Both the position numbers and the translations under genes were made by a program. The notes below the pieces were generated by a model, which saw only the letters and a program-made list of their open reading frames with translations, had not been told where the DNA came from and did not search any database. This document shows positions 5,230-47,681 of a DNA stretch of 64,000 nucleotides, piece after piece. The DNA is from an uncultured Sulfolobales archaeon. Lineage in GTDB: Archaea; Thermoproteota; Thermoprotei_A; Sulfolobales; NBVN01. The DNA lies in assembly GCA_938083005.1 (NCBI GenBank), contig CALKCU010000015.1, forward strand, positions 3,407-67,406. Reading direction: 5' to 3'. How positions within the stretch are numbered: position 1 is the first letter of the stretch; each line of letters opens with the position of its first letter.

Positions 5230-5442
5230 GTGGAGACAGACGTTTTAGTGTCCGTCAGACTTCCCAGGAGCGTTGTAGAGCTTATAGATCACCTCGTGAA
5301 GGCGGGCATCGTTAGCTGCCGCAGCGAGGCGCTGAGGCTGGCGGTAGCGCTCAAGCTGAAGAGCTTGGGCTACGACGTGGAGCCCAGGAAGCTAGACGAG
5401 ATCCTGAGCAGGCTTAAGAGCCCGAGAGGGCTAGGCGAGTGA
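5230..5442 (+). CDS. Ribbon-helix-helix (CopG/Arc/MetJ-like) DNA-binding protein
   Basis: 70 aa with a GTG start. It has an N-terminal beta strand (VLVSVRLPRSVVELID) followed by two helices (CRSEALRLAVALKL), the typical RHH layout. Confidence 0.65.
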   Translation: METDVLVSVRLPRSVVELIDHLVKAGIVSCRSEALRLAVALKLKSLGYDVEPRKLDEILSRLKSPRGLGE

Positions 5443-11550: not shown

Positions 11551-12480
11551 TTGGATGAGCTATCGGTGGGGTCGTTGGATAGCGCGTGCGCCGAGCTGGC
11601 GAACCGGGCAGCGCTATCGAAGATGCTGTCCGTAGCGGAGGCCAGGCCTCTGGAAGCCCTGCTCAAGCTCTCGGAGTGCTTGGTCAGGGAGCCAAGGTCG
11701 GCTGTCGTGGGAATCACGGGTCCGCAGGGAACGGGCAAGTCCACCCTGATCTCGCGCTTGGTCGGGGAGCTGAGCAGCGAGGGGCGCACGGTGGCCGCGC
11801 TGCTGGTAGACCCGTCCTCCCCCCTCACCGGGGGCGCTGTCCTCGGCAACAGGCTGAGGATCAGAGACCTCCCGGACGGAGCCTTCGTCAGGAGCGTGTG
11901 GGCCGAGGACGAGAGGGCCGTCCCGCTCAGGGCCCTGATATCGCTCGAGCTGCTGGAGGCGGCCGGCTACGACTACGTGATCGTGGAGACCCCGGGCGCC
12001 GGCCAGGTAAACACGAGCGTCCTGAGGATCAGCGACCTGGTCGTGGTCGTTCTGATGCCCCTCCTCGGAGACGAGGTCCAGGTGATAAAGGCGGGGCTGA
12101 TGGAGATAGGGGACGTCTACGTAGTAAACAAGGCCGACCTGCCGGAGGCCGACCTCATGTACAGCTACGTCAAGCCCTTCGCGAGGGGGAGGCCCGTGGT
12201 AAAGGTCTCAGCTCTCTACGGAGAGAACATGGAGGAGCTGCTGAGCGCTGTGAGGAGCGTGCTAGAGCGGAGGAGTCTGGAGGGTGCGAGGGAGAGGAAG
12301 AGGATCGAGCGGAGGAGGTACCTGCTGGAGGAAGCGCTACTAGAGCTGCTGCACAGCGCGATCCGGGAGGAGCTGGGCAGGGTCGGTGGAGAGGAGCTGC
12401 TGAAGAGACCCGAGGCCTTCGCGGAGCTTGTGAGAGGCTTAAAAGCCAGGCTGGCTAACAGGATTACTGGGGGCCCGTAG
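11551..12480 (+). CDS. meaB: MeaB/ArgK-type G3E GTPase (methylmalonyl-CoA mutase-associated)
   Basis: 309 aa. It has the P-loop GITGPQGTGKST, plus LLVDPSSPLTGGAVLGNRLR and NKADL, the signature of the MeaB/ArgK family. Confidence 0.85.
   Translation: MDELSVGSLDSACAELANRAALSKMLSVAEARPLEALLKLSECLVREPRSAVVGITGPQGTGKSTLISRLVGELSSEGRTVAALLVDPSSPLTGGAVLGNRLRIRDLPDGAFVRSVWAEDERAVPLRALISLELLEAAGYDYVIVETPGAGQVNTSVLRISDLVVVVLMPLLGDEVQVIKAGLMEIGDVYVVNKADLPEADLMYSYVKPFARGRPVVKVSALYGENMEELLSAVRSVLERRSLEGARERKRIERRRYLLEEALLELLHSAIREELGRVGGEELLKRPEAFAELVRGLKARLANRITGGP
12438..12445 (+). promoter_or_regulatory. Box-A (CTTAAAAG) for tRNA-Pro, embedded in the meaB coding sequence
   Basis: Lies 26-33 nt upstream of the tRNA 5' end at 12471. 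The other tRNA promoters in this window show the same spacing. Confidence 0.5.
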
Positions 12481-12566
12481 TTTAGCTTGGCAGAATGCGG
12501 GGTTCGGGTCCACACCTCGCGCGGCGGAAGTCCCCGTGGTCCGGGGTTCAAATCCCCGCGGGCCCA
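12471..12566 (+). tRNA. tRNA-Pro (anticodon CGG) with 22-nt intron
   Basis: Hand fold: acceptor GGGCCCG/CGGGCCC; anticodon stem CGGGG/CCCCG; loop TT-CGG-G, with the anticodon at 12505-12507. The intron spans 12509-12530 at position 37/38. The T arm is CGGGG-TTCAAAT-CCCCG. CCA is not encoded. Confidence 0.85.
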
Positions 12567-12729
12567 CCTACGACATCGCGGCGCCTTACTCTGACAGCGT
12601 CCCCGCGAGCCGGGGCGGCGGGTCGAGCCTCGCATCAACTCCGGGTCTCCCGCCAGGAGACCCTCCGTCCTTCGGACGCGCCAGCCTGAGCCCCCCATCG
12701 AGGAGATATTTTGGCGCCCGCCCAAGCCT

Positions 12730-23332: not shown

Positions 23333-24625
23333 TTGAGCTCGGCGATCGAGGTATCCCTGGACGGAGGTCGGGTGCTCAGAGTCGTCGGCCCGGTAAGGGT
23401 CGAGGTGCTCTCTGGCGTAGTCTTGGTGGTTGGCTCGAGATATCCGGCGGGTTCGTCGTTCGTAGTCCACAGGCTCAGGTCTTACGGAATCAAGGCACTC
23501 TCGCCGGCTAGGCTGCGGCTCACTCTTGGCGAGGGCTCGAGGGTCGAGGAGTGCGGAGAGAGTGAGGAGGTGGTCGACGACTGGCTCAGCGCCTCCGAGT
23601 ACGTAGTGAGGAGGTGCTTAGAGAGGGGGCGGTGCAGGGTCCTGGTGGTCGGCCCGCCGGAATCGGGGAAAACCACCCTAACGGCGTTCCTGGCCAACCG
23701 CCTGAGGGAGGCCGGGTTTAGGGTGGGGGTTATAGAGGGCGATGTGGGACAGGAGGACGTCCTAGTCCCGACCACGATAGCCCTAGCGGAGGTCTCGAAG
23801 CCCGTCCTGTGGCTGAGGGAGCTCGAACCGTCGTCGTTCAGGTTCGTGGGCTGCACCTCCCCTCAGTACTGCTACTCCGAGAGCGTCATGGCCATAAGGG
23901 AGCTCGTGGACGAGGCTGCCAGGATAGGCTTCAACGCCGTGCTCGTAAACACCGACGGCTGGGTCGGCACTGCTTTAGGGATAGAGCACAAGCTGACCAT
24001 CATTAGGTGGGTAAGGCCGGACCTGGTGATAGCGACGAGCGCGGACGTGCACGACGTTATATCCAGGTGCCTCAGCGGATCGACCGAGGTGTTACAGGTT
24101 CGGAGGCCGGCTATCGTGCGGGAGAGGAGTAGGGAGGAGAGGCGCGAACTGAGGACCCAGGCGTACAGGAGGTACTTTAGCAGGGGGAGGGTGAGGAGAG
24201 TGAGGCTGGAGGGGGTCGCTTTGTTCAGTGCGTGTGCTCTCGCGGGGCGTCCCCTCTCGAGGGATGAGCTAGCAAGAGCTCTCGGGGTTCCCAGTAGTGA
24301 GCTGGGGGCGGTGCTCTACTCGTCCAGGGTGGGGGACACTCTTTACGTAGTCGCCAGGGAGTTCGCGGGCAGTAGCGCGAGCTTCTCGGACTCCAGGAGG
24401 GTTGTAGTTATGAGTCCCGAAGAGATTAAGGGAGCGCTAGTTGGGTTGCTGGGGGACGGAATGCGCGAGGTTGGCGTCGGCATAATATGGGGAGCGGAGT
24501 TCGAATCGCGAGAGCTCACTATCCTAACCCCGTGGGAGGGGGGGATAAGGGGCCTGATCATTGGCAAGATAAGGCTCAACGAGAACTTCGAAGAGGTCGG
24601 TAGGGTGACGAGATGTACTCTCTAG
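23333..24625 (+). CDS. Clp1/Grc3-type P-loop polynucleotide 5'-kinase homolog
   Basis: 430 aa. It has the P-loop VVGPPESGKTT with a Walker B-like VNTDGW. Domain order is as in archaeal Clp1. Confidence 0.65.
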   Translation: MSSAIEVSLDGGRVLRVVGPVRVEVLSGVVLVVGSRYPAGSSFVVHRLRSYGIKALSPARLRLTLGEGSRVEECGESEEVVDDWLSASEYVVRRCLERGRCRVLVVGPPESGKTTLTAFLANRLREAGFRVGVIEGDVGQEDVLVPTTIALAEVSKPVLWLRELEPSSFRFVGCTSPQYCYSESVMAIRELVDEAARIGFNAVLVNTDGWVGTALGIEHKLTIIRWVRPDLVIATSADVHDVISRCLSGSTEVLQVRRPAIVRERSREERRELRTQAYRRYFSRGRVRRVRLEGVALFSACALAGRPLSRDELARALGVPSSELGAVLYSSRVGDTLYVVAREFAGSSASFSDSRRVVVMSPEEIKGALVGLLGDGMREVGVGIIWGAEFESRELTILTPWEGGIRGLIIGKIRLNENFEEVGRVTRCTL

Positions 24626-25905
24626 CTAGAGTAGTGGAGGCCCAGGCCAGCAGGGGGTACGTCAAGAGGATAGCCGGAGAGCTCGAGCCCGACATAGAGC
24701 CAACCAAGCACCTCGCGGAAGCCGATAGGACCGGGTCCACGATCCTGTTCCGGGTAAGAGGCTCGGGGCTGGAGTGCGTTGGCGGAGTCATCAACACGAG
24801 GGAGAAGCTCTACGAGCTGCTCGGAGCGGGGGGAGACGAGGAGGCTTACAGTAAGCTCTCAGCAGCCCTCAGCGGTAGGGCCCAGGACGGCTTCAGAGTG
24901 CTGGGGTTCAGCGAGCTCTTCAGGCCTTTCGAGGGGTCCCTGACCTCCCTCCCGGCAGTGAGGTTCTACAGCATTGACGGCGGGAGGTACGTGACGTCAG
25001 CGATAGTGATAGCTAAAACCCCGGATCTCGATTCGTACAACGCCTCCATACATAGGCTCATGCTGTTGAGCGAGCGCGCCGTCGCCATAAGGCTGGTCCC
25101 CCGCCACCTCTACAGGATATACGAGCTGAACAGGCGATCGGGCGCCGAGACTAGGGTTGCCGTCGTGATCGGGGCCCACCCACTCGTAGAGCTCGCCTCG
25201 TCAATGTCTCCGCCCTACGGAGTCTTCGAGCTCGAGCTCGTGGAGAAGCTGGGCGGAGGTCCCCTCGAGGTAGCGTACACCCCCGCGTATGGCCTCCCGG
25301 TTCCCGCGCACGCTGCTGTAGTATTCGAGGGCAGGATCACGGGAGATTTGGTGAAGGAGGGTCCCTTCGTGGACATACTCGGGCTCCCGGATAGGGTTCG
25401 CGACCAGCCCGTCCTAGCGGTAGACCGGGTGTACGTGTCCAAGGACCCGGAGTACTTTCACGTCATACTCCCCGGAGGGGTGGAGCACTTCTTGCTGATG
25501 GGCTTCCCCAGGGAAACGGCTGTGTGGGAGGCTGTCAGGAAGGTCGTGCCCAGGGTAGTGAAAGTCAGGCTAACCAGGGGCGGGTGCATGTGGCTCCACG
25601 CGGTGATATCTATCTCTAAGGAGAGTGAAGGAGACGGCAAGTCGGCCATAATGGCCGCCTTCGCGGCCCACCCAAGCCTCAAGCACGTAGTCGTAGTTGA
25701 TGAGGACATAGATCCCGACAACCCCGAGGAGGTGGAGTGGGCCATAGCCACGAGGTTTCAAGCGAGTAGGGGGCTGGTGGTGGTGAGGGGCGCCAGGGGG
25801 TCGACGCTGGATCCGAGCTCCGAAGACGGGCTCACGGACAAGGTGGGTGTGGACGCTACCGCTCCCCTGAACCGCCGCGAGCTCTTCACGAGGCTCAGAG
25901 TCTGA
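24613..25905 (+). CDS. UbiD-family decarboxylase; candidate trans-anhydromevalonate-5-phosphate decarboxylase
   Basis: 430 aa with UbiD-like sequence throughout. It lies directly upstream of both aconitase-X subunit genes. The function is inferred from context. Confidence 0.8.
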   Translation: MYSLARVVEAQASRGYVKRIAGELEPDIEPTKHLAEADRTGSTILFRVRGSGLECVGGVINTREKLYELLGAGGDEEAYSKLSAALSGRAQDGFRVLGFSELFRPFEGSLTSLPAVRFYSIDGGRYVTSAIVIAKTPDLDSYNASIHRLMLLSERAVAIRLVPRHLYRIYELNRRSGAETRVAVVIGAHPLVELASSMSPPYGVFELELVEKLGGGPLEVAYTPAYGLPVPAHAAVVFEGRITGDLVKEGPFVDILGLPDRVRDQPVLAVDRVYVSKDPEYFHVILPGGVEHFLLMGFPRETAVWEAVRKVVPRVVKVRLTRGGCMWLHAVISISKESEGDGKSAIMAAFAAHPSLKHVVVVDEDIDPDNPEEVEWAIATRFQASRGLVVVRGARGSTLDPSSEDGLTDKVGVDATAPLNRRELFTRLRV

Positions 25906-25918
25906 CGCGGGTGAGCGC

Positions 25919-27079
25919 GTGCATCTGACTAGGGAGGAGGAGAGGATGCTGTCCGGAGAGCTCGGAGAGCCCGTGGCCAAGGCTATCGAAGTGCTCGTGA
26001 GCGTGGGAGAAGCCCTCGGTGCTGAGAGGCTCATCGAGGTTGCGCACGCGCACGTATCCGGGGTCTCGTACTTCAACGTAGGAGACCCCGGCCTGGAGTT
26101 CATTGAGGACCTATCGAGGGGGGGAGCTAGGTTCGCCACCTTCACAACGGCAAACCCCTACGCCGCACTGGCGGTTTACGGCTCCAAAGGCTTCAACGAG
26201 GAGCTCGTTGCCAAGCAGATGAGGATTGTCGAGGCGCTGAAGAGGATGGGAGCGAGAAGCTTCACCTGCGCTCCGTACTACGTGAGGACTCCCTCGGTGG
26301 GGGAGCACCTGGCCTGGGCGGAGAGCAGCGCCGTGCTTTACGCGAACAGCGTGCTCGGGGCCATGACCAACAGAGAGCCCGGTATCGTAGCCCTGATGGC
26401 CGGGATCGCTGGCCGGACCTACCTGGGGAAGGCCCACGAGGGGCTTCCTGGAGAGGTGGAGTACGTAGTGGACATCGAGAGGCCGAGCGATCCCTCCGAG
26501 GCCGGAGCTTACGGACTGCTCGCCGGCGAGCTCCTGGGGAGCTCCACACCGCTGGTCCGGGGTCTGGAGGGACTTCCGGATAGCTTCCTCAAGGAGTTCC
26601 TAGCAGCCTTGGCCACGAGCTCTCCGTCGCACCTGGCGGTCCTAGAGGGCGTAACCCCGGGCTACCGCAGCGTCGGCGCGGCGAGCGCCGAGAGGGTATC
26701 CCTCGGGAGATCCGACATATCCAGGCTCTACTCGGAGGCGAGGAGTTGCAGCTCGCCCCTCTACTTGGTCGGATGCCCTCACCTATCCCTCGAGGAGCTC
26801 GAGGAAGTGCTGCTTAGGGTGGAGGGGGTCGAGAGGGGGGAGCTCTGGCTGACCGTCGGCGAGCACTACGCTCGCTACCTCGTGGGCGTGCGGCGCGCGG
26901 AGAGAGTGAAGATACTGACCGGGGCCTGCGCTGTGGCTACGAGGTTAGACCTCTTGGGGGTCGACTGCGTGATAACGGACTCCGCCAAGGCTCTCGCCTA
27001 CCTACCCAAGCTCGCCAACGTCAGGGCGTTCCTCGTAAAGAGGAGAGACCTGCTGAGGATGGTGTCCGACCTTGACTGA
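25919..27079 (+). CDS. Aconitase X catalytic (large) subunit, DUF521; candidate phosphomevalonate dehydratase large subunit
   Basis: 386 aa with a GTG start. The N-terminus MHLTREEERMLSGELGEP...IEVAHAHVSG is typical of DUF521/AcnX. Confidence 0.8.
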   Translation: MHLTREEERMLSGELGEPVAKAIEVLVSVGEALGAERLIEVAHAHVSGVSYFNVGDPGLEFIEDLSRGGARFATFTTANPYAALAVYGSKGFNEELVAKQMRIVEALKRMGARSFTCAPYYVRTPSVGEHLAWAESSAVLYANSVLGAMTNREPGIVALMAGIAGRTYLGKAHEGLPGEVEYVVDIERPSDPSEAGAYGLLAGELLGSSTPLVRGLEGLPDSFLKEFLAALATSSPSHLAVLEGVTPGYRSVGAASAERVSLGRSDISRLYSEARSCSSPLYLVGCPHLSLEELEEVLLRVEGVERGELWLTVGEHYARYLVGVRRAERVKILTGACAVATRLDLLGVDCVITDSAKALAYLPKLANVRAFLVKRRDLLRMVSDLD

Positions 27080-28073
27080 GGTCCCCCTATACCCGATCGG
27101 CAGGGCCCCCAAAGAGAGGGTCTGCGGAGAGCTTCTGGTGTACGGAGGCTTCGTGTCGCCCCTCGGGGACGTAGACCCGGAGACCGGCCGCCTGAGGGGC
27201 GGTGGCGCTCTAGGAGGCAAGGTGGTAGCCGTCAAGGGCTTCACCGGCAGCACCGTTGGGCCCTACGTCGTCTACTCGCTGAAGAAGAGGGGGCTGGCGC
27301 CCAGAGCCCTCGTCGTCGAGCAGCTCGACGCCAACGCCGTCGCCTCGGCGGTGGTAGCCGGGATCCCTCTCTACAGAGTCGACAGCCTGTCCGAGGTCGA
27401 GAGGCTTTACGGTGAGGGTCTACGCTTCGTCTGCGCGGAGTCCGGGAGGCTTAGACCCCGCGGGCTCCTGATAGCAGTAGAGGGAGTAGACGGCGCCGGC
27501 AAGACCACGGTCTCGAAGAGGCTGCGCGACATCCTCGAGAGGTGCGGCTTCAGGGCGGTCTACACGTACGAGCCCTACTACGACGCGGTGAGGTCCATAT
27601 TCGAGTCGAGGTCCATGGAGCTGACGCCAGCCGTCGAGGCCCTGCTGCTGGTCGCCGACAGGTACTCCCACTACGAGTCCGTGATCAGGAGGGAGGTAGA
27701 GAGGGGGAGCGTGGTGGTCCTGGACAGGTACAAGTACTCCACGATAGCCTACCAGGGAGCGGCGGGCCTCCCGATCGAGTGGCTCCTGGAGATCCAGAGG
27801 TACCTCCCGGATCCTGACCTCGCGATATACCTCGACGTAGACCCTGAGGAGGGGCTGAGGAGGAAGGCCGCGAGCGGGCCGAGGTCCCTCGCCTACTTCG
27901 AGGAGGACGTGGAGAGGATCAGGAGGGCCCGGGAGATATACCTAGGCCTGGCGTCCGAGGGCAAGCTCGTGCTGGTCGACGCGAGGGTCGAGCTTTCCAA
28001 AGTGATGGAGAAGGTGGTCGACGCGATCGAGGAGAGGCTCGGGCTCGACCTCAGGGAGTGCTCGCGGGAGTAA
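27072..28073 (+). CDS. tmk: Fusion: aconitase X swivel (small) subunit, DUF126 + thymidylate kinase
   Basis: Single 333-codon frame. The N-terminal ~125 aa are DUF126-like (GKVVAVKGFTGSTVGPYVV...APRALVV). The C-terminal ~200 aa begin with the dTMP kinase P-loop LIAVEGVDGAGKTT. It overlaps the large-subunit gene by 8 nt. Confidence 0.75.
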   Translation: MTEVPLYPIGRAPKERVCGELLVYGGFVSPLGDVDPETGRLRGGGALGGKVVAVKGFTGSTVGPYVVYSLKKRGLAPRALVVEQLDANAVASAVVAGIPLYRVDSLSEVERLYGEGLRFVCAESGRLRPRGLLIAVEGVDGAGKTTVSKRLRDILERCGFRAVYTYEPYYDAVRSIFESRSMELTPAVEALLLVADRYSHYESVIRREVERGSVVVLDRYKYSTIAYQGAAGLPIEWLLEIQRYLPDPDLAIYLDVDPEEGLRRKAASGPRSLAYFEEDVERIRRAREIYLGLASEGKLVLVDARVELSKVMEKVVDAIEERLGLDLRECSRE

Positions 28074-28223
28074 GCCTCGTGGGGTCGAGAGGACCCCGCG
28101 GTCGTAGAGGAGGCCGCGTGAAACCCCGATGACGCGGGGATCTGCCCGGCCTCGGGAACCCAAGCTCGCGGAAGCCGGGCCGACCGGGGCGAGACTGGGG
28201 GATCAAAACGGGTGGAACCGCCT

Positions 28224-28394
28224 CTAGACGAACCTGAAGTATATCCCGGCGGGTACTCGGTAGTAGCACGGACCGCACCAGGGACACCACCGGGACGGGT
28301 CGACCATGTACTGGTACTCGCTCACGGCCACATATACGAACTCGCTGATGTTGTAGTCGTTTTGGATGTCCTCATAGTCTCCGTGATTTACCAT
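28224..28394 (-). CDS. Small Cys/Tyr/Trp-rich ORF (56 aa), hypothetical; below the ORF-track size cutoff
   Basis: Hand translation: MVNHGDYEDIQNDYNISEFVYVAVSEYQYMVDPSRWCPWCGPCYYRVPAGIYFRFV*. Third codon positions are mostly G/C. It may be the tail of a frameshifted larger gene. Confidence 0.35.
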   Translation of the reverse strand: MVNHGDYEDIQNDYNISEFVYVAVSEYQYMVDPSRWCPWCGPCYYRVPAGIYFRFV

Positions 28395-28686
28395 GCCACC
28401 GGAGATATATCGATGATCCCTTGGCCGACAAGCTTACCATGAATGCCGAGGCGAAGCCTGCGGCGGCAGTGCATGGCGCGGACCCGATCCCGAAACCGAG
28501 CGCCGCGCAAATGCCGAGCGCGGCGATCGACTCGGCCGGGATGGACACCTCGAAGTCGGCCCCGCACTTATCGAAGTGCTTGAAGATCTGCTCTAGTGCT
28601 ATGCTCTCGCCGGGGTCGAGGCGCCCATCAGCTAGGGACGTCTCCGGGATACTGAGCCTCTGCCAAGTAGTGCCGCTAAAGAACAT
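28372..28686 (-). CDS. Hypothetical protein with one hydrophobic Ala/Gly-rich segment
   Basis: 104 aa ORF that overlaps the next ORF by 23 nt in another frame; see findings on the frame-hopping chain. Confidence 0.35.
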   Translation of the reverse strand: MFFSGTTWQRLSIPETSLADGRLDPGESIALEQIFKHFDKCGADFEVSIPAESIAALGICAALGFGIGSAPCTAAAGFASAFMVSLSAKGSSIYLRWHGKSRRL

Positions 28687-28714
28687 CTGCAGCAGGTCGC
28701 TATGCGGTAGCCCT

Positions 28715-29125
28715 CTATCCGCTCCTCCCGAGATCCGAGATTATATAACCGCTGGTTAGGACGTCTCCGGTGAAGCTCTCAACGTCGTCCCCGATGTACT
28801 CGCAGGAAGAAGCGTAGCAATAACAGTAGTAGACTTTCCACACACGGTAGATAGATCTCGCCCATATCCACGCCCACACCGCTTTGAGCGGTGATAGTAT
28901 ATCGCTCCAATGGAAGTAGTAAGTGGCTCCGCCCCACGTGAAGCCGCCGCCTTTCCACAAAGTCACGTCGGGCCACACGCCTTTCGAGATCTTGTCGAGT
29001 ATCTTCCCGGTAGTCAAGGTGGGGTAGATCCCGACCTTCTCCCCTCTCATGCCTATGTTTATAGACACAGTGACTGAGCCGCTATACCAGTAAGCGTTCT
29101 CGGCTATCAGCACCGGCGTCTTCAT
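28715..29125 (-). CDS. Hypothetical W/Y/C-rich protein
   Basis: 136 aa (…TLWKGGGFTWGGATYYFHW…VWAWIWARSIYRVWKVYYCYCYASSCEY…). Its frame stays open upstream into the 3' end of the preceding gene without a start codon. Confidence 0.4.
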   Translation of the reverse strand: MKTPVLIAENAYWYSGSVTVSINIGMRGEKVGIYPTLTTGKILDKISKGVWPDVTLWKGGGFTWGGATYYFHWSDILSPLKAVWAWIWARSIYRVWKVYYCYCYASSCEYIGDDVESFTGDVLTSGYIISDLGRSG

Positions 29126-29202
29126 GTAGTACTTTCCGTTTTGGTACCTGAAGTAGTCTACCGGCAGCCTCGAGAGGAGGTCCTCGGGCCTGATCTCCGC
29201 TA

Positions 29203-29865
29203 TCAGTTCCCTGTAGATGTAACCGTGAAGGCCTCCGCCTCGAGTCTCGAGACGTGACCGTACCTCACGTCGAGGTGCGCGAACGTCTGCGAACCTCTCA
29301 CCAGGCCCGCCGAGACCCTCAGGGACCTCCCCCTCGCTATCTCGACGGGCTTGTAGGACAGAGAGTCGTAGGCCTCGAACATTATCTCACCGGAGCTTCC
29401 GTTGTATATGAATAGCCTGACTATCAACCCCGAGTAGGTTCCCTCGGGGTCCCCTCCCCTCGACTCGTAGACTGAGACCCACCCCCTGGAGATCTCGAGG
29501 AGCTCCTCCGACTCGAAGAACATCGCCCTCCTGGGCTTAGCCGTGATCTTGACCAGCGTCACGACATCCTCCCTCCACCTCGGGTCCGGGGGAGCCATAG
29601 CGTTGATCTCGAGGTAGATGAGAGTGTCCGGGCGGTCGAGGAGGTGGGTCACGTCCACGAGCCTCCCTCTTATGGGATCGACCTCGTAGAGCCTCAGCTC
29701 GAGGAGTATCCCGGGACCTGCGGCGGCGTTGGTCGCGCTCGGGACACCGTACACGGCAGCGTAGATAGCGTAGAGGGCCACCGACAGGGAGCCGGCCAGC
29801 AGGAGGGCTAGGACGGGCACTCCTTTTAGGCTACTGCGAAGGATGCGCAACCGCTCCACCGTCAT
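29203..29865 (-). CDS. Membrane-anchored hypothetical protein
   Basis: The track start is 29922, but a TTTTATTA box (minus strand) lies about 29 nt upstream of ATG 29865 (MTVERLRILRSS). A signal-anchor segment VPVLALLLAGSLSVALYAIYAAV follows. Confidence 0.5.
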   Translation of the reverse strand: MTVERLRILRSSLKGVPVLALLLAGSLSVALYAIYAAVYGVPSATNAAAGPGILLELRLYEVDPIRGRLVDVTHLLDRPDTLIYLEINAMAPPDPRWREDVVTLVKITAKPRRAMFFESEELLEISRGWVSVYESRGGDPEGTYSGLIVRLFIYNGSSGEIMFEAYDSLSYKPVEIARGRSLRVSAGLVRGSQTFAHLDVRYGHVSRLEAEAFTVTSTGN

Positions 29866-30076
29866 TGACACCAGCGCACCTTCCCCTAATAAAACCTCTT
29901 GCCGGATTCCGCTGACCGGCATCGATCCGCTCCCCTCCCGCGCTCCACTCCGCGCGGGCGGCTCAGTTTATGGGGCCGAGCTGGGGCTTCGTGCCAGCCG
30001 CTCGGAGGGGTCAGCCCGCGGACGTAGGATCGGGCTGCCGCAGTTGTAATTTGTAACTAGTGCCGCCCTAGACCGG

Positions 30077-31456
30077 GTGCTGGCCATTGTCCGGGGGCTG
30101 CAGAACACGGCGCTAGCCCTCGTGCTGGCCTTCTTGGCGACCGTGGCTAGCGTCGGCGTAGTCCTGTTTCAGGACGACCTGAGCGTAGTCTTCTCCAGCT
30201 GGGCGGATGGCAAGCCCAAGATGATGGTCAAGCTCGAGATACCCGTACCCGGAGTCGGCGCGGACTTCTGCTACGTGGCCGTCATGAGGTTCCCGGGCCG
30301 CCTGAGGCCTACGAAGGCTAACGAGCTCGAGATGGTCCACTCGGGCAGGCACGGACCCGGCGAGACCGTCGTAGTGAGGGAGCTCCACCGCGCGATAGTA
30401 GCCGAGGAGAGCTACGACCCCAGGACCGGGGAGTACGGGGTCGAGTACTACGAGCCGGTCGAGTACCTCGCCATGGTCCTATGCGTGGGGGGAGGCGGGA
30501 CCGAGTACAAGTACGGGAGGGTCCACCAAGTGTTCCCGAGGAGCCTAGTGTGGACCCACAGAGTGGAGGTAGAGCTCGTCGAAGAGAAATCGGGGAGGAA
30601 AGCGGAGAGCCCGTCCGCGGGCCACGTAGCGCTGGTCAGCTCCGCTGACGGCGTTACGTCTATCACCGCCCCCGTCAGCTGCGACCTGGGGAGCGTCCCG
30701 AGCATATGCTCAGGCGAGCACGTGAGGAGGGAGTGCTTCACTTACGTTAAGGGCCCGGTCCTCCGCTCTCTGGAGGGCCTCACGACCTCCTTCGCGATAT
30801 ACGGGCAGGCCGATCCGCGCCCCTCAGTGGTGTACCTGGAGGCCTACTACGACATCGTGCCGGCACTAGCCCCGGACCTCTGTAGAAGAGAGCCGGAGTG
30901 GAAGAGTGCGGGGAAGAAGGAGGTGGTCGCCTTGGCCGACTCGGAGGCCTACCCACTCTCAGGTAACATGCGGGACAGAGTGTACCTCGGAGTAACGTTC
31001 GTTTACACGCAGGGCTGCTATTCCGACCCGTTTACGGGAGGCTTCTGCTGGTGGAGTATACACCCCACGGACGTCTCTAGTGTCAGGAGGAGCGAGCAGC
31101 TGGTCGCGGACGGGACCCTGCCGTGGTACATGCTGGAGCTGGCGAGCTACGACCCGCACCCGCCCGTGGTGCCGTCCTACGTCAGAGAGGCCGCAGACTA
31201 CGTGAAAAAGATACCCTTCGCACCGCCGAGGCTGACGGACAACATACTCGCGGACATCGGAGTGGCCTTCACGGTAACCGTCGAGTGGAAGTGGGTATCG
31301 TTCTCCCTCGCGATAAGCTTCTACGGAGCGGGCAGGGACGACGGGTACTATACGACCCCGTACGTGAGGGTCGAGAACCCGGCCTGGAGGACCTACCGGT
31401 GGTGGTACAAGGACGACGACCCGATGACCTACGAGCTCTTCTTCAAGTGGAAATGA
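30077..31456 (+). CDS. Secreted/membrane-anchored hypothetical protein, W/Y/C-rich
   Basis: 459 aa. It has an N-terminal hydrophobic segment (ALALVLAFLATVASVGVVLF) and many paired Cys. The C-terminus is ...AWRTYRWWYKDDDPMTYELFFKWK. I recognise no family. Confidence 0.55.
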   Translation: MLAIVRGLQNTALALVLAFLATVASVGVVLFQDDLSVVFSSWADGKPKMMVKLEIPVPGVGADFCYVAVMRFPGRLRPTKANELEMVHSGRHGPGETVVVRELHRAIVAEESYDPRTGEYGVEYYEPVEYLAMVLCVGGGGTEYKYGRVHQVFPRSLVWTHRVEVELVEEKSGRKAESPSAGHVALVSSADGVTSITAPVSCDLGSVPSICSGEHVRRECFTYVKGPVLRSLEGLTTSFAIYGQADPRPSVVYLEAYYDIVPALAPDLCRREPEWKSAGKKEVVALADSEAYPLSGNMRDRVYLGVTFVYTQGCYSDPFTGGFCWWSIHPTDVSSVRRSEQLVADGTLPWYMLELASYDPHPPVVPSYVREAADYVKKIPFAPPRLTDNILADIGVAFTVTVEWKWVSFSLAISFYGAGRDDGYYTTPYVRVENPAWRTYRWWYKDDDPMTYELFFKWK

Positions 31457-31810
31457 CCTGGTAACGATAGGCTTTTCCGCTCTCCGCCCTGCTCGGGAGA
31501 CCCGCGGGCGGGCTGGGGTTTATGGTCCCGCTCGCGGGTATGCCTATGGAGTGCCGGGTCCGGCGGGCTCCACTGATTCTCGAGGCGTGGATCGCTCGGT
31601 GATGTACCTTGAAGCCCTCCCCAGGCTCGGGCGCGGTCCTCTGAGCGAGCCGGCCTGGTGGGAGAGCTGATCCAGCTGGTGACCGCGGGTCGCTAGGCGT
31701 GACCGCGTGCCGGGCTCCAGCCCCGCTCCCGCACCCTGCTCGCGGCGTGGGAGCCCTCTAGCGCGGGCTGTAGTGAAAAGAGTGGAGAGAGCTCGAGGCG
31801 GCGAGAGCGC

Positions 31811-33226
31811 TCAGGAGCAGTACTCGTTGAGCAGGGAGTCCAGGGCCCTGACCACGTACTCGTATATGCCCTGGCCCATGATGATCGACCTGTTCATAGC
31901 GTAGGACCTGAACTCCCCCTGGTCCACCAGCTCGCAGGGCCCTCCCCGGGCTCTGACGAGGTCTATAGCTAGGTCTACGTACTCCACGGTGTTGGGGATG
32001 AGGAGCTCGGGCTTGGTGTTGATGTTCGCGTATATCCCCTTGAGCTCCCCGCTGCTGCTGAAGTACTGGTGGACTACGTAGGGGACCCCCTCAACCACGG
32101 TGGTCTTAATGACGTCGCCGACCTCCTTTCTAACCCCGAGGCCGTCGTACACACCGCTGCTCCTGGTCCTCCTCTCAAGGACCAGCCTGAACCCGTCGCC
32201 GTGGTTGACCTCGACGACGGTGGCCGCGCCGAGCTTTATGCTCTCGCCGTTGAGGGTCTTGTGGCTTATCACGAGCTCCCCGACCTCCTTGATGATCTTG
32301 GCCGCGAACCTCCTCACGATCCTCCTCAGGGTCTCCCTCTCTACGTACGCCGAGACCTCGTCTAGCAGCTCAGCCAAGTCGCGGTAGAGACTCCTGGAGG
32401 ACCTTATCATGTGATGATAGTCGGCGGTCGGCGCGACGGTCCTCCTCACTTCGTCGAGCCTCAGCTTGGCGTCGTAGGTCAGGTGCGCGACTATTATCTT
32501 TTCGCCCTTGGTGATCGCGGAAACCTCTCTTACGTCACTCACGCTCCCCTCGAGAACGCTGAGCTGCTCGACCAAACGCGGGAGTTCGGCGGTGATAGCC
32601 TCTAGATCGGCCTCGTCCGCGTTGCTCCTCCACTTGATGCTCACCCCCCTCCTAACGTATTGAGACGAGATGCTGAGCAGCTCGGATATCCTCGCCTTGT
32701 TCTTCAGATGGGGGCTGAAGAGAACGCGGGAACCCCTCCATACTACTGCGAAGTCTCCTACCACTCTCATCCCGGGCACCACGACCATCCTCTCACTCGG
32801 CTGTACGGGCACCCTGATTACCGATGCGAGTATGATCGCGCCCTCCCTGCACTCCCGGTACTCGACCATCTCGGCGGGTCCGTAGGGCGTTTTCACGATA
32901 CACCTACCGTCCCTCATACCCTCGACGAGGACCATTAGCGTGGCGTACAGCCCCACTGAGGGAACGTAGGTAACGGCCTCGGGGATGTGCTCGATGAGGG
33001 TCTTGGCCACGGCCTCGGCGTGATCCGAGTGCCCTATTACGAGTATCTTCGAGGTGTCGTCGTTGTCCGTCTTGACCGTTACGTCCGCTGGGAGCCCCCT
33101 GTTTGTCGACAGGCGCAGCCTCTCGGCGAGGGCATCGCTGAGGTCGACGAGAGTGTACCCCTCCTCGTGGAGGATCTTGGAGATAGCGGTGGAGTAGATA
33201 CCGCGCACTCTCACCTTGACGCTCAA
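31811..33226 (-). CDS. FAU-1/AubA-type RNA-binding protein (probable RNase E/G-like ribonuclease, DUF402 C-terminus)
   Basis: The track start 33280 overlaps the upstream gene. TTG 33226 is preceded by GGAGG and gives MSVKVRVRGIYSTAISKIL..., matching the conserved FAU-1 N-terminus as I recall it. Confidence 0.75.
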   Translation of the reverse strand: MSVKVRVRGIYSTAISKILHEEGYTLVDLSDALAERLRLSTNRGLPADVTVKTDNDDTSKILVIGHSDHAEAVAKTLIEHIPEAVTYVPSVGLYATLMVLVEGMRDGRCIVKTPYGPAEMVEYRECREGAIILASVIRVPVQPSERMVVVPGMRVVGDFAVVWRGSRVLFSPHLKNKARISELLSISSQYVRRGVSIKWRSNADEADLEAITAELPRLVEQLSVLEGSVSDVREVSAITKGEKIIVAHLTYDAKLRLDEVRRTVAPTADYHHMIRSSRSLYRDLAELLDEVSAYVERETLRRIVRRFAAKIIKEVGELVISHKTLNGESIKLGAATVVEVNHGDGFRLVLERRTRSSGVYDGLGVRKEVGDVIKTTVVEGVPYVVHQYFSSSGELKGIYANINTKPELLIPNTVEYVDLAIDLVRARGGPCELVDQGEFRSYAMNRSIIMGQGIYEYVVRALDSLLNEYCS

Positions 33227-33240
33227 AGCCTCTACCCTCC

Positions 33241-33525
33241 TCAGTCCCTGATGCTCGATAGTATCGCGATTATGTTCCATATCATCGTTCTAGCGTAGGA
33301 GGGCATGTTCGGGTCCTGACTTATCTCGTCTAGCACGCTCGCCGCGTTGGCAGCTCTCACACCGGGCGACAACGACCTATCGTTGAGCATCTTCAGAGCT
33401 TCGAAAGCGGCCCTCCTTATGTTCCTGGGGATCCCCGAGTCCACGATGATCCTGTTGAGCATCGTAACGACCTGGTTCAGTTTCATCTCGTTTATCTGGT
33501 CCTTGCTTATGTCGGGTCTGCCCAA
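33241..33525 (-). CDS. UPF0147 family small helical protein
   Basis: 94 aa. The motifs IPRNIRRAA...L...SL.PGVRAANA...L.EIS.DPNMP..ART.IWN match the archaeal UPF0147 pattern. Confidence 0.7.
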   Translation of the reverse strand: MGRPDISKDQINEMKLNQVVTMLNRIIVDSGIPRNIRRAAFEALKMLNDRSLSPGVRAANAASVLDEISQDPNMPSYARTMIWNIIAILSSIRD

Positions 33526-46205: not shown

Positions 46206-47498
46206 TCAGGGGATCCAGAAGTGCCTTATATACGATATATAGAACCCCGCGACTATGGCGGTACCTATCACTCCAGCTACGTTGGGTCCCAGCGCGTGGT
46301 AGAGCACGTAGAGACCGGGTTTAGCGAGCTGTGCCTCCCTCTGCGCTACCCTAGCGGATATGGGGACCGCCGAGACGCCGGCGCACCCTATCACCGGGTT
46401 GACCTTACCCCTCGTAGCAAAGTAGAGCGACCAGGCGAACAACAGCCCCCCAGATGTGGAGACGGCGAACGCTATCAAGCCCAGGGCCAGTATCACGAAG
46501 GCCCTGATGACGAAGTCGAGGATGGCTATGGGGGAGGCCTCCGGCACGTACTGCAGCAGGAAATCGTAGGAGAGGGTCGCGCCCACTCCCAGCATCGTGA
46601 GTATGGTCGCTATGTCGAGGAGGGGGTCGGCCATGGTCTTGAAGTACCTCTCGAGCTCGGCTATCTTGGCGGAGGCCTCCTTGACGATGTTGCCCAGGGC
46701 TAGCGCTGCTACGAGCGGAAACGCTGCCGGGACCAGGGCGCCCACCACGAGGAGGCACACTAGCCAGAACACGAGTACGTGCCCCGGGGTCACCTCCCTG
46801 GGGCTCGGCATCTCCACGGCTCTGTACTTCCTCGGCACGAGGGCCCTAATTATGGGCGGCTGAATCACCGGTACCAAGGCGATGTAGCTGTAAACCGCGA
46901 TCGTAAGGGGTCCCACTAGGTGGGGCGCTATGTTCACTGCGGTGTATATCGTTGTCGGTCCGTCAGCCCCGCCGACGACCCCTATGGCCATAGCCTCGTT
47001 CAGCCGGAATCCGAGGGTTAGAGCGGTGAGCGTTACCACGGTTATCCCGAGCTGAGCGGCGGAGCCTATCAGAGCGCCCGCGGGGAACGATATCAGCGGC
47101 CGGAAGTCCGAGAGCGCGCCTATGCCAGCGAATATGAGTATCGGGCCCACCTCGCTTCTGACCACGAGGTGGTATACCCATCCGAGGAGCGATGTAGCCT
47201 CCGGCGAGCACACCTTCGTGAAGCCCTCGAATTCTATCACGTTCACTAACCCCTTGATCCCTTCGAGCTCTGCCGGGAGCCGACCGCTCAGATTCTGGCA
47301 CACGTACCTAGCTAGATGGAGGCCCGGCGCGTTAGCCAGGATCATCCCGAGGCCTATGGGTATCAGTAGAAGAGGCTCGACGCCCTTCTTCACAGCCAGC
47401 AACACTAGGACGGACCCCCAGACTATGAATATAGCACGTATGGCGAGCTCCTGGGGATCGCCCAGGGCCAGTCCGGGAAACAGTATGGAGGGATCCAT
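46206..47498 (-). CDS. oadB: Na+-translocating decarboxylase beta subunit (OadB/GcdB/MmdB family)
   Basis: 430 aa polytopic protein. The motifs FAGIGALSDF and GVVGGADGPTTIY are typical of this family. Confidence 0.85.
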   Translation of the reverse strand: MDPSILFPGLALGDPQELAIRAIFIVWGSVLVLLAVKKGVEPLLLIPIGLGMILANAPGLHLARYVCQNLSGRLPAELEGIKGLVNVIEFEGFTKVCSPEATSLLGWVYHLVVRSEVGPILIFAGIGALSDFRPLISFPAGALIGSAAQLGITVVTLTALTLGFRLNEAMAIGVVGGADGPTTIYTAVNIAPHLVGPLTIAVYSYIALVPVIQPPIIRALVPRKYRAVEMPSPREVTPGHVLVFWLVCLLVVGALVPAAFPLVAALALGNIVKEASAKIAELERYFKTMADPLLDIATILTMLGVGATLSYDFLLQYVPEASPIAILDFVIRAFVILALGLIAFAVSTSGGLLFAWSLYFATRGKVNPVIGCAGVSAVPISARVAQREAQLAKPGLYVLYHALGPNVAGVIGTAIVAGFYISYIRHFWIP

Positions 47499-47571
47499 GA
47501 CTCAGCACCGCACTCGCATCTTCCCTCAAGAATAAAAGCCTTTGGAGGTCTCAGGCCAGTGGCATTAAGAG

Positions 47572-47578
47572 TTTTAAG
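47572..47578 (+). promoter_or_regulatory. Box-A (TTTTAAG) for tRNA-Ile
   Basis: Lies 26-32 nt upstream of the tRNA 5' end. Confidence 0.5.
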
Positions 47579-47603
47579 TGCTGGCGCGAAGGAAAAACCC
47601 TGG

Positions 47604-47681
47604 GGGCCCGTAGCTTAGCCTGGTTAGAGCGCCCGGCTGATAACCGGGAGGTCCGGGGTTCGAATCCCCGCGGGCCCACCA
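47604..47681 (+). tRNA. tRNA-Ile (anticodon GAT), intron-less, CCA encoded
   Basis: Canonical cloverleaf: GGGCCCG-TA-GCTT...AGAGC-G-CCCGG-CT-GAT-AA-CCGGG-AGGTC-CGGGG-TTCGAAT-CCCCG-CGGGCCC-A-CCA. The anticodon lies at 47639-47641. Confidence 0.95.

Follow-up and report, generated by a model that had tools for sequence, protein, structure and literature searches.

We report that an uncultured Sulfolobales archaeon encodes, within one open reading frame (ORF), both the swivel domain of an aconitase X (AcnX) enzyme, which is the small subunit of archaeal phosphomevalonate dehydratase (PMDh), and a dTMP kinase (Tmk). The frame lies at 27072..28073 on the forward strand of the window (the whole 64,000-nucleotide stretch of DNA that was analyzed), opens with a TTG, and runs for 333 amino acids with no internal stop. 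It encodes a real, single-polypeptide fusion of swivel domain and Tmk. Judging from sequence comparisons, we think it probable, and hold with good confidence, that the product is a bifunctional protein, PMDh small subunit and dTMP kinase in one, born from the fusion of adjacent genes. The fusion is genuine but evolutionarily ordinary: both enzymes are well known and only the architecture that joins them is new. Nothing in these data currently points to new biochemistry.

Domain content of the fused frame

Two protein families occupy the frame. The Pfam model PF01989 (AcnX_swivel) matches residues 29-100 (E 5e-18, 65.1 bits, cutoff 27) and PF02223 (Thymidylate_kin) matches residues 136-314 (E 5e-36, 124.5 bits, cutoff again 27), while the NCBIfam equivalog TIGR00041, "dTMP kinase," clears its cutoff of 83.25 with 137.8 bits. 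The narrower small-subunit equivalog NF003046 (PRK03955) gives the swivel half 52.8 bits, below its cutoff of 163. An initial annotation, made from the letters of the sequence, had described one uninterrupted 333-codon frame with an N-terminal DUF126/AcnX swivel and a C-terminal Tmk, and had proposed the two Pfam searches as a check; both families score above cutoff, the C-terminal half is Tmk, and the description holds throughout. It also holds for the 8 nt that the frame shares with the AcnX large-subunit gene (27072..27079, forward strand, TTGACTGA), where the TTG of the fusion precedes the TGA of the large subunit at 27077-27079; the same 8-nt overlap occurs in the relative L002.

The swivel half (AcnX domain 4; residues 1-131, 27072..27464, forward strand) is complete to its native C-terminal glycine and matches PDB entries 2hi6 (AF0055) and 7cnr_B (TK1248) at an E value of ~1e-11. 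Its S60-T61 pair (27249..27254, forward strand) sits in a GSTVG motif aligned to the same motif in TK1248; neither residue varies across 19 fusion proteins or 16 swivel domains. In the Thermococcus kodakarensis enzyme (TkAcnX), the roles published for Ser62(S) and Thr63(S) are those of catalytic base and substrate-carboxylate binding, respectively (PMC8184944); by alignment, S60 is the putative catalytic base and T61 the putative carboxylate binder of the fusion protein. The pattern C121-x-E123-x3-L127-x3-G131 aligns with the native C termini of stand-alone small subunits, which end in ACIEDEVLSIDG in the unfused relative L021 and in ACIEGGEVRFEG in the unfused relative L024. With dN/dS values of 0.09-0.27, the swivel half is under purifying selection.

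The kinase half (residues 132-333, 27465..28070, forward strand) retains every motif expected of a Tmk. A P-loop, G138-V-D-G-A-G-K144-T145, can be read at 27483..27506 (forward strand), and in an alignment of 19 fusion homologues its G138, D140, G141, G143, K144, and T145 are invariant, as is the D218-R219-Y220 motif at 27723..27731 (forward strand). Residues K16, D90, and Y92 of Thermus Tmk are the aligned counterparts of K144, D218, and Y220. Invariance extends to YTYEPY at 164-169 (with E167-P168), R174, D196-R197-Y198, S223-T224-x-A226-Y227-Q228-G229, and the LID residue R264; the EP, DRY-type, AYQG, and LID residues all align with Thermus counterparts. The best PDB sequence match of this half is Thermus Tmk 5x7j (E 1e-24), and a Foldseek search with its AF2 model gave target-normalized TM-scores of 0.84-0.87 to the Aquifex, Thermus, and Escherichia coli enzymes. 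Purifying selection is evident here as well (dN/dS, 0.07-0.27). The C-terminal half is thus predicted from its sequence to be a canonical dTMP kinase that would make dTDP. Compared with stand-alone Tmk (Thermus thermophilus 5x7j, Aquifex 2pbr, E. coli 4tmk), the fused kinase has the same fold and the same DRY and AYQG motifs. Its P-loop carries Gly where the human/yeast-type enzymes have Arg, and its LID residue R264 is basic. It differs from the stand-alone enzymes in that it has neither a start codon of its own nor the first 3 to 5 native N-terminal residues, and its first beta-strand begins ~2 residues after the last swivel strand.

Between the two halves, the junction from C121 to G138 (27432..27485, forward strand; CAESGRLRPRG followed by LLIAVEG) is effectively linker-less. 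No start-like codon occurs in it, and the initial annotation was right that the kinase half has no start of its own: no in-frame ATG, GTG, or TTG is found between codons 94 and 150. In an AF2 model of the whole fusion (pLDDT 90, pTM 0.87), strands at 119-123 and 126-129 precede the Tmk strand at 132-138 with pLDDT of 93-95, so that the model predicts an ordered strand-turn-strand at the junction. Five junction residues (G116, C121, E123, L127, and G131) do not vary among 19 fusion proteins; across fused loci the junctions differ in nucleotides and are equal in length. So high a pTM points to domains set at a constant angle to each other, and this might be the mark of a functional constraint, something not required of a fusion that was purely neutral.

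Distribution and origin of the fusion

Nineteen protein clusters, at 56-100% identity and drawn from NCBI, ENA, JGI, and Logan assemblies, show the fusion architecture; among the MAGs that carry it are GCA_033581075.1 (contig JAVQTV010000001.1, 1.4 Mb) and CALJEN01. Wherever a fused locus is complete, the tblastn hits of swivel and Tmk are contiguous, in the same frame, and in the same operon, and every one of 12 further metagenome loci was fused. Because the same fused frame appears in every complete related locus of the clade, the fusion lies far beyond chance. Members are all metagenome-assembled, with no cultured representative known; they are labeled Sulfolobales in the records of the metagenome-assembled genomes (MAGs) and are Desulfurococcales-like. 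A phmmer search run exhaustively over 1.84 billion representatives returned only one 50%-identity cluster matching the query over its full length, and a genome-contig scan with a single-sequence query returned one close relative. A word-indexed homology search with the 131-amino-acid swivel half returned 4 proteins; in the profile search that was used afterwards, the 120 best swivel homologues from outside the clade were all stand-alone. Over-long Tmk representatives (P0145, P0196, P0203, P0262, and P0163), considered as independent fusions elsewhere, carry no swivel domain. Neither a second tmk nor a second swivel gene was found by tblastn or by six-frame profile HMM searches in the window and all 25 loci, a search that covered the 64-kb window and ~10 kb of flank in relatives and thus a fraction of each genome. 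We found no description of a swivel-Tmk fusion in the literature searched.

The operon that carries the fusion has a fixed order in the fused clade: Clp1-like kinase, UbiD decarboxylase, AcnX large subunit, and, always last, the fusion. Its first gene (23333..24625, forward strand) encodes a 430-amino-acid Clp1-like P-loop protein of the polynucleotide-kinase type (CLP1_P, PF16575, E 1.6e-36), overlaps the UbiD gene by 13 nt, and keeps its place in every relative, fused or unfused. The UbiD-family decarboxylase that follows (430 amino acids; 24613..25905, forward strand) matches the Pfam models UbiD, UbiD_C, and UbiD_N and scores 322 bits with TIGR00148 against a cutoff of 245. Since its gene adjoins AcnX, and in light of the published pathway (PMC10040528), it is a candidate trans-anhydromevalonate-5-phosphate decarboxylase (AMPD) of the archaeal mevalonate pathway. 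The AcnX large subunit of PMDh (386 amino acids; 25919..27079, forward strand) is identified by PF04412 (AcnX, E 5e-98) and matches the T. kodakarensis large subunit, PDB 7cnr_A, at an E value of 2e-56. In alignment to 7cnr_A, it keeps G48-V49-S50, N53, N79, the E-S-S motif, and the cysteines of TCAPYY and GCPH; the third cysteine and the K-x3-Y motif were read by eye only, in an unaligned C-terminal tail. Roles of these residues were taken from published work (PMC8184944).

The unfused state survives among relatives. Six relatives, namely Zestosphaera tikiterensis (L023) and related Desulfurococcales-like MAGs (L006, L021, L022, L024, and L025), have a gene order identical to that of the fused operon and the same flanking genes, with RrnaAD upstream and DUF402 and UPF0147 downstream, but their swivel and tmk genes, homologous to the two halves of the fusion and in the same operon positions, are distinct ORFs, whereas the window's clade has one. 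In four of the six, the two genes overlap in the +1 frame, by 8, 11, 29, and 11 nt; in the other two they lie 38 and 23 nt apart. Simulating the loss of 1 nt from the L021 overlap produced a Cys-to-EG spacing of 16 residues, the same as in the real fusion, and the native swivel C terminus of L024 resembles the fused sequence ACIEGGFLRFRG followed by VLIAIEG. Fused Tmk domains are monophyletic in 100 of 100 neighbor-joining bootstraps, and Tmk identity is at least 54% between fused members and at most 48% between fused and unfused ones. That the fused Tmk domains form one clade indicates that the fusion arose once.

These data are consistent with a simple evolutionary scenario. In the ancestor of the clade, swivel and tmk were already adjacent, as the last genes of a conserved five-gene operon (Clp1-like kinase, UbiD decarboxylase, AcnX large subunit, AcnX small subunit, and tmk), with the start of tmk probably overlapping the stop of the swivel gene in the +1 frame. 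Loss of 1 nt from this overlap, or an equivalent frameshift, would then have removed the stop and joined the frames; a one-base deletion is the most likely event. Among the meanings offered by the initial annotation, a mere gene fusion finds its backing in these unfused relatives, where the genes are adjacent or overlapping in the same operon. Coregulation, which it had also offered, is right as well, but it predates the joining of the frames, since the genes already shared one operon when still separate.

Function of the halves and competing explanations

Archaeal PMDh, a type IIb AcnX, is exemplified by Aeropyrum pernix APE_2087.1 plus APE_2089 and by T. kodakarensis AcnX (PDB 7cnr/7cns, with TK1248 as chain B). 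It shares with the system described here a large subunit and a separate swivel bearing the catalytic Ser-Thr, a large gene placed before the small gene, and an adjoining gene for a UbiD-type decarboxylase. The literature searched yielded nothing on the A. pernix gene context (APE_2090). The type IIb small subunit is a free protein of ~130 amino acids, whereas here it runs without a linker into a 200-amino-acid dTMP kinase. In type I AcnX the swivel domain is also covalently fused, the partner there being its own catalytic domains 1-3; in the present protein the partner is an enzyme of an unrelated pathway. The swivel half would dock on the Fe-S large subunit encoded just upstream, supplying Ser60 and Thr61. 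We infer that the two halves retain their separate enzymatic functions and that the fusion reflects operon neighborhood and not a mechanistic coupling of the two pathways.

Several other explanations must be weighed against this reading. A frameshift error in sequencing or assembly could have merged two neighboring genes, and the overlapping genes of unfused relatives mean that an error of 1 nt would yield exactly such an ORF; more than 14 loci, assembled independently from various samples and pipelines and at 56-100% protein identity, nevertheless share this in-frame junction, a recurrence that rules out the artefact and makes its likelihood vanishingly small. It is also quite unlikely that two polypeptides are still made, whether from an internal start at a non-canonical codon or by proteolysis at the junction. 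An SD-like GGGAGG lies at 27443-27448, just upstream of the junction, and in the L010/L011 subclade an in-frame ATG precedes the junction glycine G131 by two codons, so that free Tmk could additionally be made there. In most members, however, the window included, the 10 codons upstream of the P-loop strand contain neither ATG nor GTG nor TTG, the predicted strand-turn-strand is not an exposed linker, and the GGGAGG encodes a Gly-Arg at the predicted hairpin turn and need not be a ribosome-binding site.

Other alternatives accept the single polypeptide and assign it a new role. Animal phosphomevalonate kinase has an NMP-kinase-like fold, and a fold of this type is in principle capable of serving the mevalonate pathway; the kinase half might have been recruited to phosphorylate a mevalonate-derived intermediate or isopentenyl phosphate, instead of or besides dTMP. 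Only its physical linkage to mevalonate-pathway genes speaks for such a role; the initial annotation had raised a moonlighting kinase acting on a mevalonate intermediate. That proposal goes unsupported and is highly improbable: the half scores well above the dTMP-kinase equivalog cutoff with all Tmk nucleotide-binding motifs invariant, its operon position is that of stand-alone Tmk in unfused relatives, and its best hit among stand-alone proteins named for cultured organisms is an Ignisphaera aggregans protein annotated as thymidylate kinase. Set against the swivel half, moreover, its dN/dS gives no sign that constraint has relaxed or shifted, and the kinases of the archaeal mevalonate pathway have already been assigned (PMC10040528). 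A structural advantage is a less distant prospect, if still an unlikely one. Tmk is normally a homodimer, and through it the fusion could tie two large-small units into a 2:2 complex, for heat stability or a 1:1 stoichiometry. The ordered, linker-less junction and a pTM implying a confident interdomain orientation would suit this idea, as would the invariant junction residues, the retention of the fusion under purifying selection down to 56% identity, and the behavior of A. pernix PMDh, a 1:1 heteromultimer whose surplus small subunit stays unbound (PMC10040528). Unfused small subunits, however, conserve those residues too, which thus reflect the swivel fold, not the fusion; a pTM obtained from a 19-sequence alignment is weak evidence of a fixed interface, and many relatives manage unfused. 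Such an advantage is compatible with the simple bifunctional fusion and adds an adaptive role to it. A bolder version, in which nucleotide binding or LID closure in a 2:2 complex built on the Tmk dimer would be passed on mechanically to the swivel domain, whose rotation by ~26 degrees closes the dehydratase active site, we judge very unlikely; if true, it would tie membrane-lipid precursor synthesis to DNA-precursor supply during growth.

Consequences for annotation and phylogeny

The bifunctional reading has a practical bearing on genome annotation. Public databases label the fusion proteins "dTMP kinase" only, a label that hides the PMDh small subunit. Because the records say nothing more, the small subunit seems to be missing from these genomes, and reconstructions would wrongly count the archaeal mevalonate pathway as incomplete. 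The operon itself, in which tmk and a Clp1-like kinase accompany mevalonate-pathway genes, is conserved and has so far gone unremarked. As a rare genomic change with a single origin and an ancestral state kept in sister lineages, the fusion is usable as a marker for this uncultured thermophilic archaeal clade, and the loci together preserve a stepwise record from overlapping genes to a fusion that most likely came about through a single-base event.

Elsewhere in the window, an ARAGORN tmRNA call at 47454-47681 is a probable false positive; it overlaps a tRNA-Ile in an archaeal genome. Downstream of the fusion, and outside it, a lineage-specific insert of ~3.7 kb (28100..31800) separates the fusion gene from a convergent DUF402 gene (31811-33280, reverse strand).

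One reading frame in a mevalonate operon

The fusion ORF (27072 to 28073, +) runs for 333 codons without a break from a TTG start and shares 8 nt with the end of the ORF before it (25919 to 27079), stop codon included. All of the sequence features listed for it in the initial annotation are present. The two halves read there by eye are borne out by Pfam, which assigns residues 29 to 100 to AcnX_swivel (PF01989; E = 5e-18) and residues 136 to 314 to Thymidylate_kin (PF02223; E = 5e-36). The match to TIGR00041, the dTMP-kinase equivalog of NCBIfam, reaches 137.8 bits (cutoff, 83.25). The kinase half was also said to lack a start of its own, and indeed no in-frame ATG, GTG, or TTG occurs between codons 94 and 150.

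Upstream lie genes for a Clp1-like P-loop protein (23333 to 24625), a UbiD-family decarboxylase (24613 to 25905), and, directly adjacent, the AcnX large subunit (25919 to 27079), all overlapping or closely spaced in an operon-like arrangement. In the archaeal mevalonate pathway, phosphomevalonate dehydratase is a heteromer of AcnX large and small subunits, and the next enzyme is a UbiD homologue (PMC10040528, PMC8184944). The large subunit of the window matches that of Thermococcus kodakarensis (7cnr_A; E = 2e-56); within the aligned region, it retains the residues published as binding phosphate, carboxylate, or the cluster. The window is otherwise ordinary archaeal core chromosome (60.7% GC) carrying aIF5B-like, MCM, Nop5, TrkH, and other housekeeping genes.

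Distribution and origin of the fusion

On the question of how widespread the fusion is, a search of 5.8 billion proteins recovered the PF01989-PF02223 architecture in 19 clusters (56 to 100% identity) drawn from NCBI, ENA, JGI, and Logan, the named members of which come from "Sulfolobales archaeon" MAGs and are labeled just "dTMP kinase." Scanned exhaustively with HMMER, 1.84 billion cluster representatives yielded a single 50%-identity cluster matching the query end to end, and no swivel domain was seen in the other Tmk matches of unusual length from that scan. All of the best 120 swivel homologues outside the clade stand alone. We retrieved one genome locus, three loci for the database protein P0008, and twelve metagenome loci; in every complete fused locus the swivel match adjoins the Tmk match in a single frame, and the order Clp1, UbiD, AcnX, fusion is kept. 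Junction codons vary between loci at constant length. The fusion is genuine, not an artefact. One of the long Tmk matches from the HMMER scan, the non-window protein P0163 (327 aa), joins Thymidylate_kin to the C-terminal domain of endonuclease NucS, a further Tmk fusion that has gone unremarked.

By tracing the closest stand-alone Tmk (at most 48 to 50% identity) and swivel proteins to their contigs, we found six unfused relatives (L006, L021, L022, L023 from Zestosphaera tikiterensis, L024 from a Desulfurococcales MAG, and L025). All six have the identical operon and flanks (upstream RrnaAD, encoded on the other strand; downstream DUF402 and UPF0147), and in all six swivel and tmk are separate genes. 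Four of them show an overlap of 8, 11, 29, or 11 nt between the end of swivel and the start of tmk, which is read in the +1 frame; a gap of 38 or 23 nt separates the genes in the other two. Alignment with these pairs shows that the fusion holds the entire swivel subunit to its native C-terminal glycine (L021, ...ACIEDEVLSIDG*; L024, ...ACIEGGEVRFEG*; fusion, ...VCAESGRLRPRG131) and passes straight from G131 into the first Tmk beta-strand, LLIAVEG, with just the first few native Tmk residues missing. When 1 nt is deleted in silico from the L021 overlap, the Cys-to-EG spacing becomes 16 residues, the same as in the real fusion, and the Tmk domains of fused proteins form one clade in 100 of 100 neighbor-joining bootstraps. 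From the overlapping unfused pairs, the simulated deletion, the single Tmk clade, and the lack of the architecture among the matches recovered outside the clade, we conclude that the fusion arose once, when a small frameshift joined two overlapping genes.

Both fused and unfused Desulfurococcales-like lineages (window 23333 to 28073; L006 and L021 to L025) share a conserved operon of tmk and the Clp1-like P-loop kinase gene with UbiD decarboxylase and both AcnX subunits; the linkage of tmk and Clp1-like genes to the mevalonate pathway is older than the fusion. In Ignisphaera, tmk stands after trmO instead, and in Vulcanisaeta and locus L008 a hypothetical ORF of 95 to 97 aa comes after the swivel gene. 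The ENA metagenome assembly ERZ1669248 holds a fused-type (L010) and an unfused-type (L006) locus on different contigs, so lineages with and without the fusion coexist in one habitat.

State and meaning of the two halves

To judge from their sequences, both halves look functional. Swivel residues S60-T61, in an invariant GSTVG motif, align to GSTVG of the T. kodakarensis small subunit TK1248, in which the general base is proposed to be Ser62 and the carboxylate of the substrate is bound by Thr63 (PMC8184944). The P-loop, EP motif, R174, both DRY-type motifs, AYQG, and LID arginine are invariant in all 19 fusion proteins and align with their Thermus Tmk equivalents. For non-saturated pairs, dN/dS is 0.09 to 0.27 in the swivel half and 0.07 to 0.27 in the Tmk half. 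An AlphaFold2 model from the 19-sequence alignment (pLDDT 90; pTM 0.87) has a Tmk half resembling solved Tmk structures (TM 0.84 to 0.87), and the final swivel hairpin (strands 119 to 123 and 126 to 129) is predicted to lead into Tmk strand 132 to 138 through ~2 connecting residues (pLDDT 93 to 95). Neither the 64-kb window nor any fetched flank holds a second tmk or small-subunit gene, profile searches included.

No start-like codon lies within 10 codons of the junction in the window and most relatives, so in most members the kinase is obtainable only as part of the fusion. The exception is the fused L010/L011 subclade, which has an in-frame ATG two codons ahead of G131 (…LRMRG…; about 5385 to 5387 in both loci). 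Starting there would give MRGLVIAVEG (L010) or MRGIVIAIEG (L011), which resembles a native Tmk start, and in this subclade alone a free Tmk might be made alongside the fusion.

The best-supported reading is that the ORF encodes a putative bifunctional protein formed by joining adjacent, already co-transcribed genes, and that isoprenoid and nucleotide metabolism are linked here through operon neighborhood, not chemistry. This agrees with one of the earlier proposals, simply a gene fusion, given that the six unfused relatives keep the two genes as separate neighbors. A moonlighting kinase half acting on a mevalonate intermediate, also proposed, found no positive support; a Tmk score at equivalog level, unvarying Tmk motifs, and the operon position, which matches that of stand-alone tmk in unfused relatives, speak against it. 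The fusion might still have an adaptive structural role, in that Tmk dimerization could join two dehydratase units and fix their stoichiometry. Conservation at the junction is no argument for such a role, because unfused small subunits conserve these residues too.

Full-text literature searches pairing phosphomevalonate dehydratase, aconitase X, anhydromevalonate, or DUF126 with thymidylate (dTMP) kinase brought up no description of the fusion or of the linkage within the operon. The proteins themselves are in public databases, under-annotated, and the fusion is not a new biological system; its uses are as an annotation correction, a rare-genomic-change marker, and a clear illustration of the way fusions come about.

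Neighboring features of the window

A ~3.7-kb segment (28100 to 31800) separates the fusion gene from the convergent DUF402 gene, which lies directly downstream (at most ~500 nt) in every fused relative fetched. Its three ORFs (28715 to 29125 and 29203 to 29922, minus; 30077 to 31456, plus) have no Pfam match and are without homologues across the 25 related loci, and hydrophobic N termini are apparent by eye in two of them. The segment has the look of an insertion specific to this lineage. Right after the fusion stop codon (28074 to 28110) is a short, perfect inverted repeat, GGGGTC GAGAG GACCCC, with no T-run after it, which might be a transcript-end structure or chance in GC-rich DNA. An ARAGORN tmRNA call (47454 to 47681) overlapping tRNA-Ile(gat) (47604 to 47681) is almost certainly a false positive, the genome being archaeal. 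Introns are common in crenarchaeal tRNA genes, and the 98-nt length called for tRNA-Pro(cgg) (12471 to 12568), over the standard tRNA length, suggests that it contains one.
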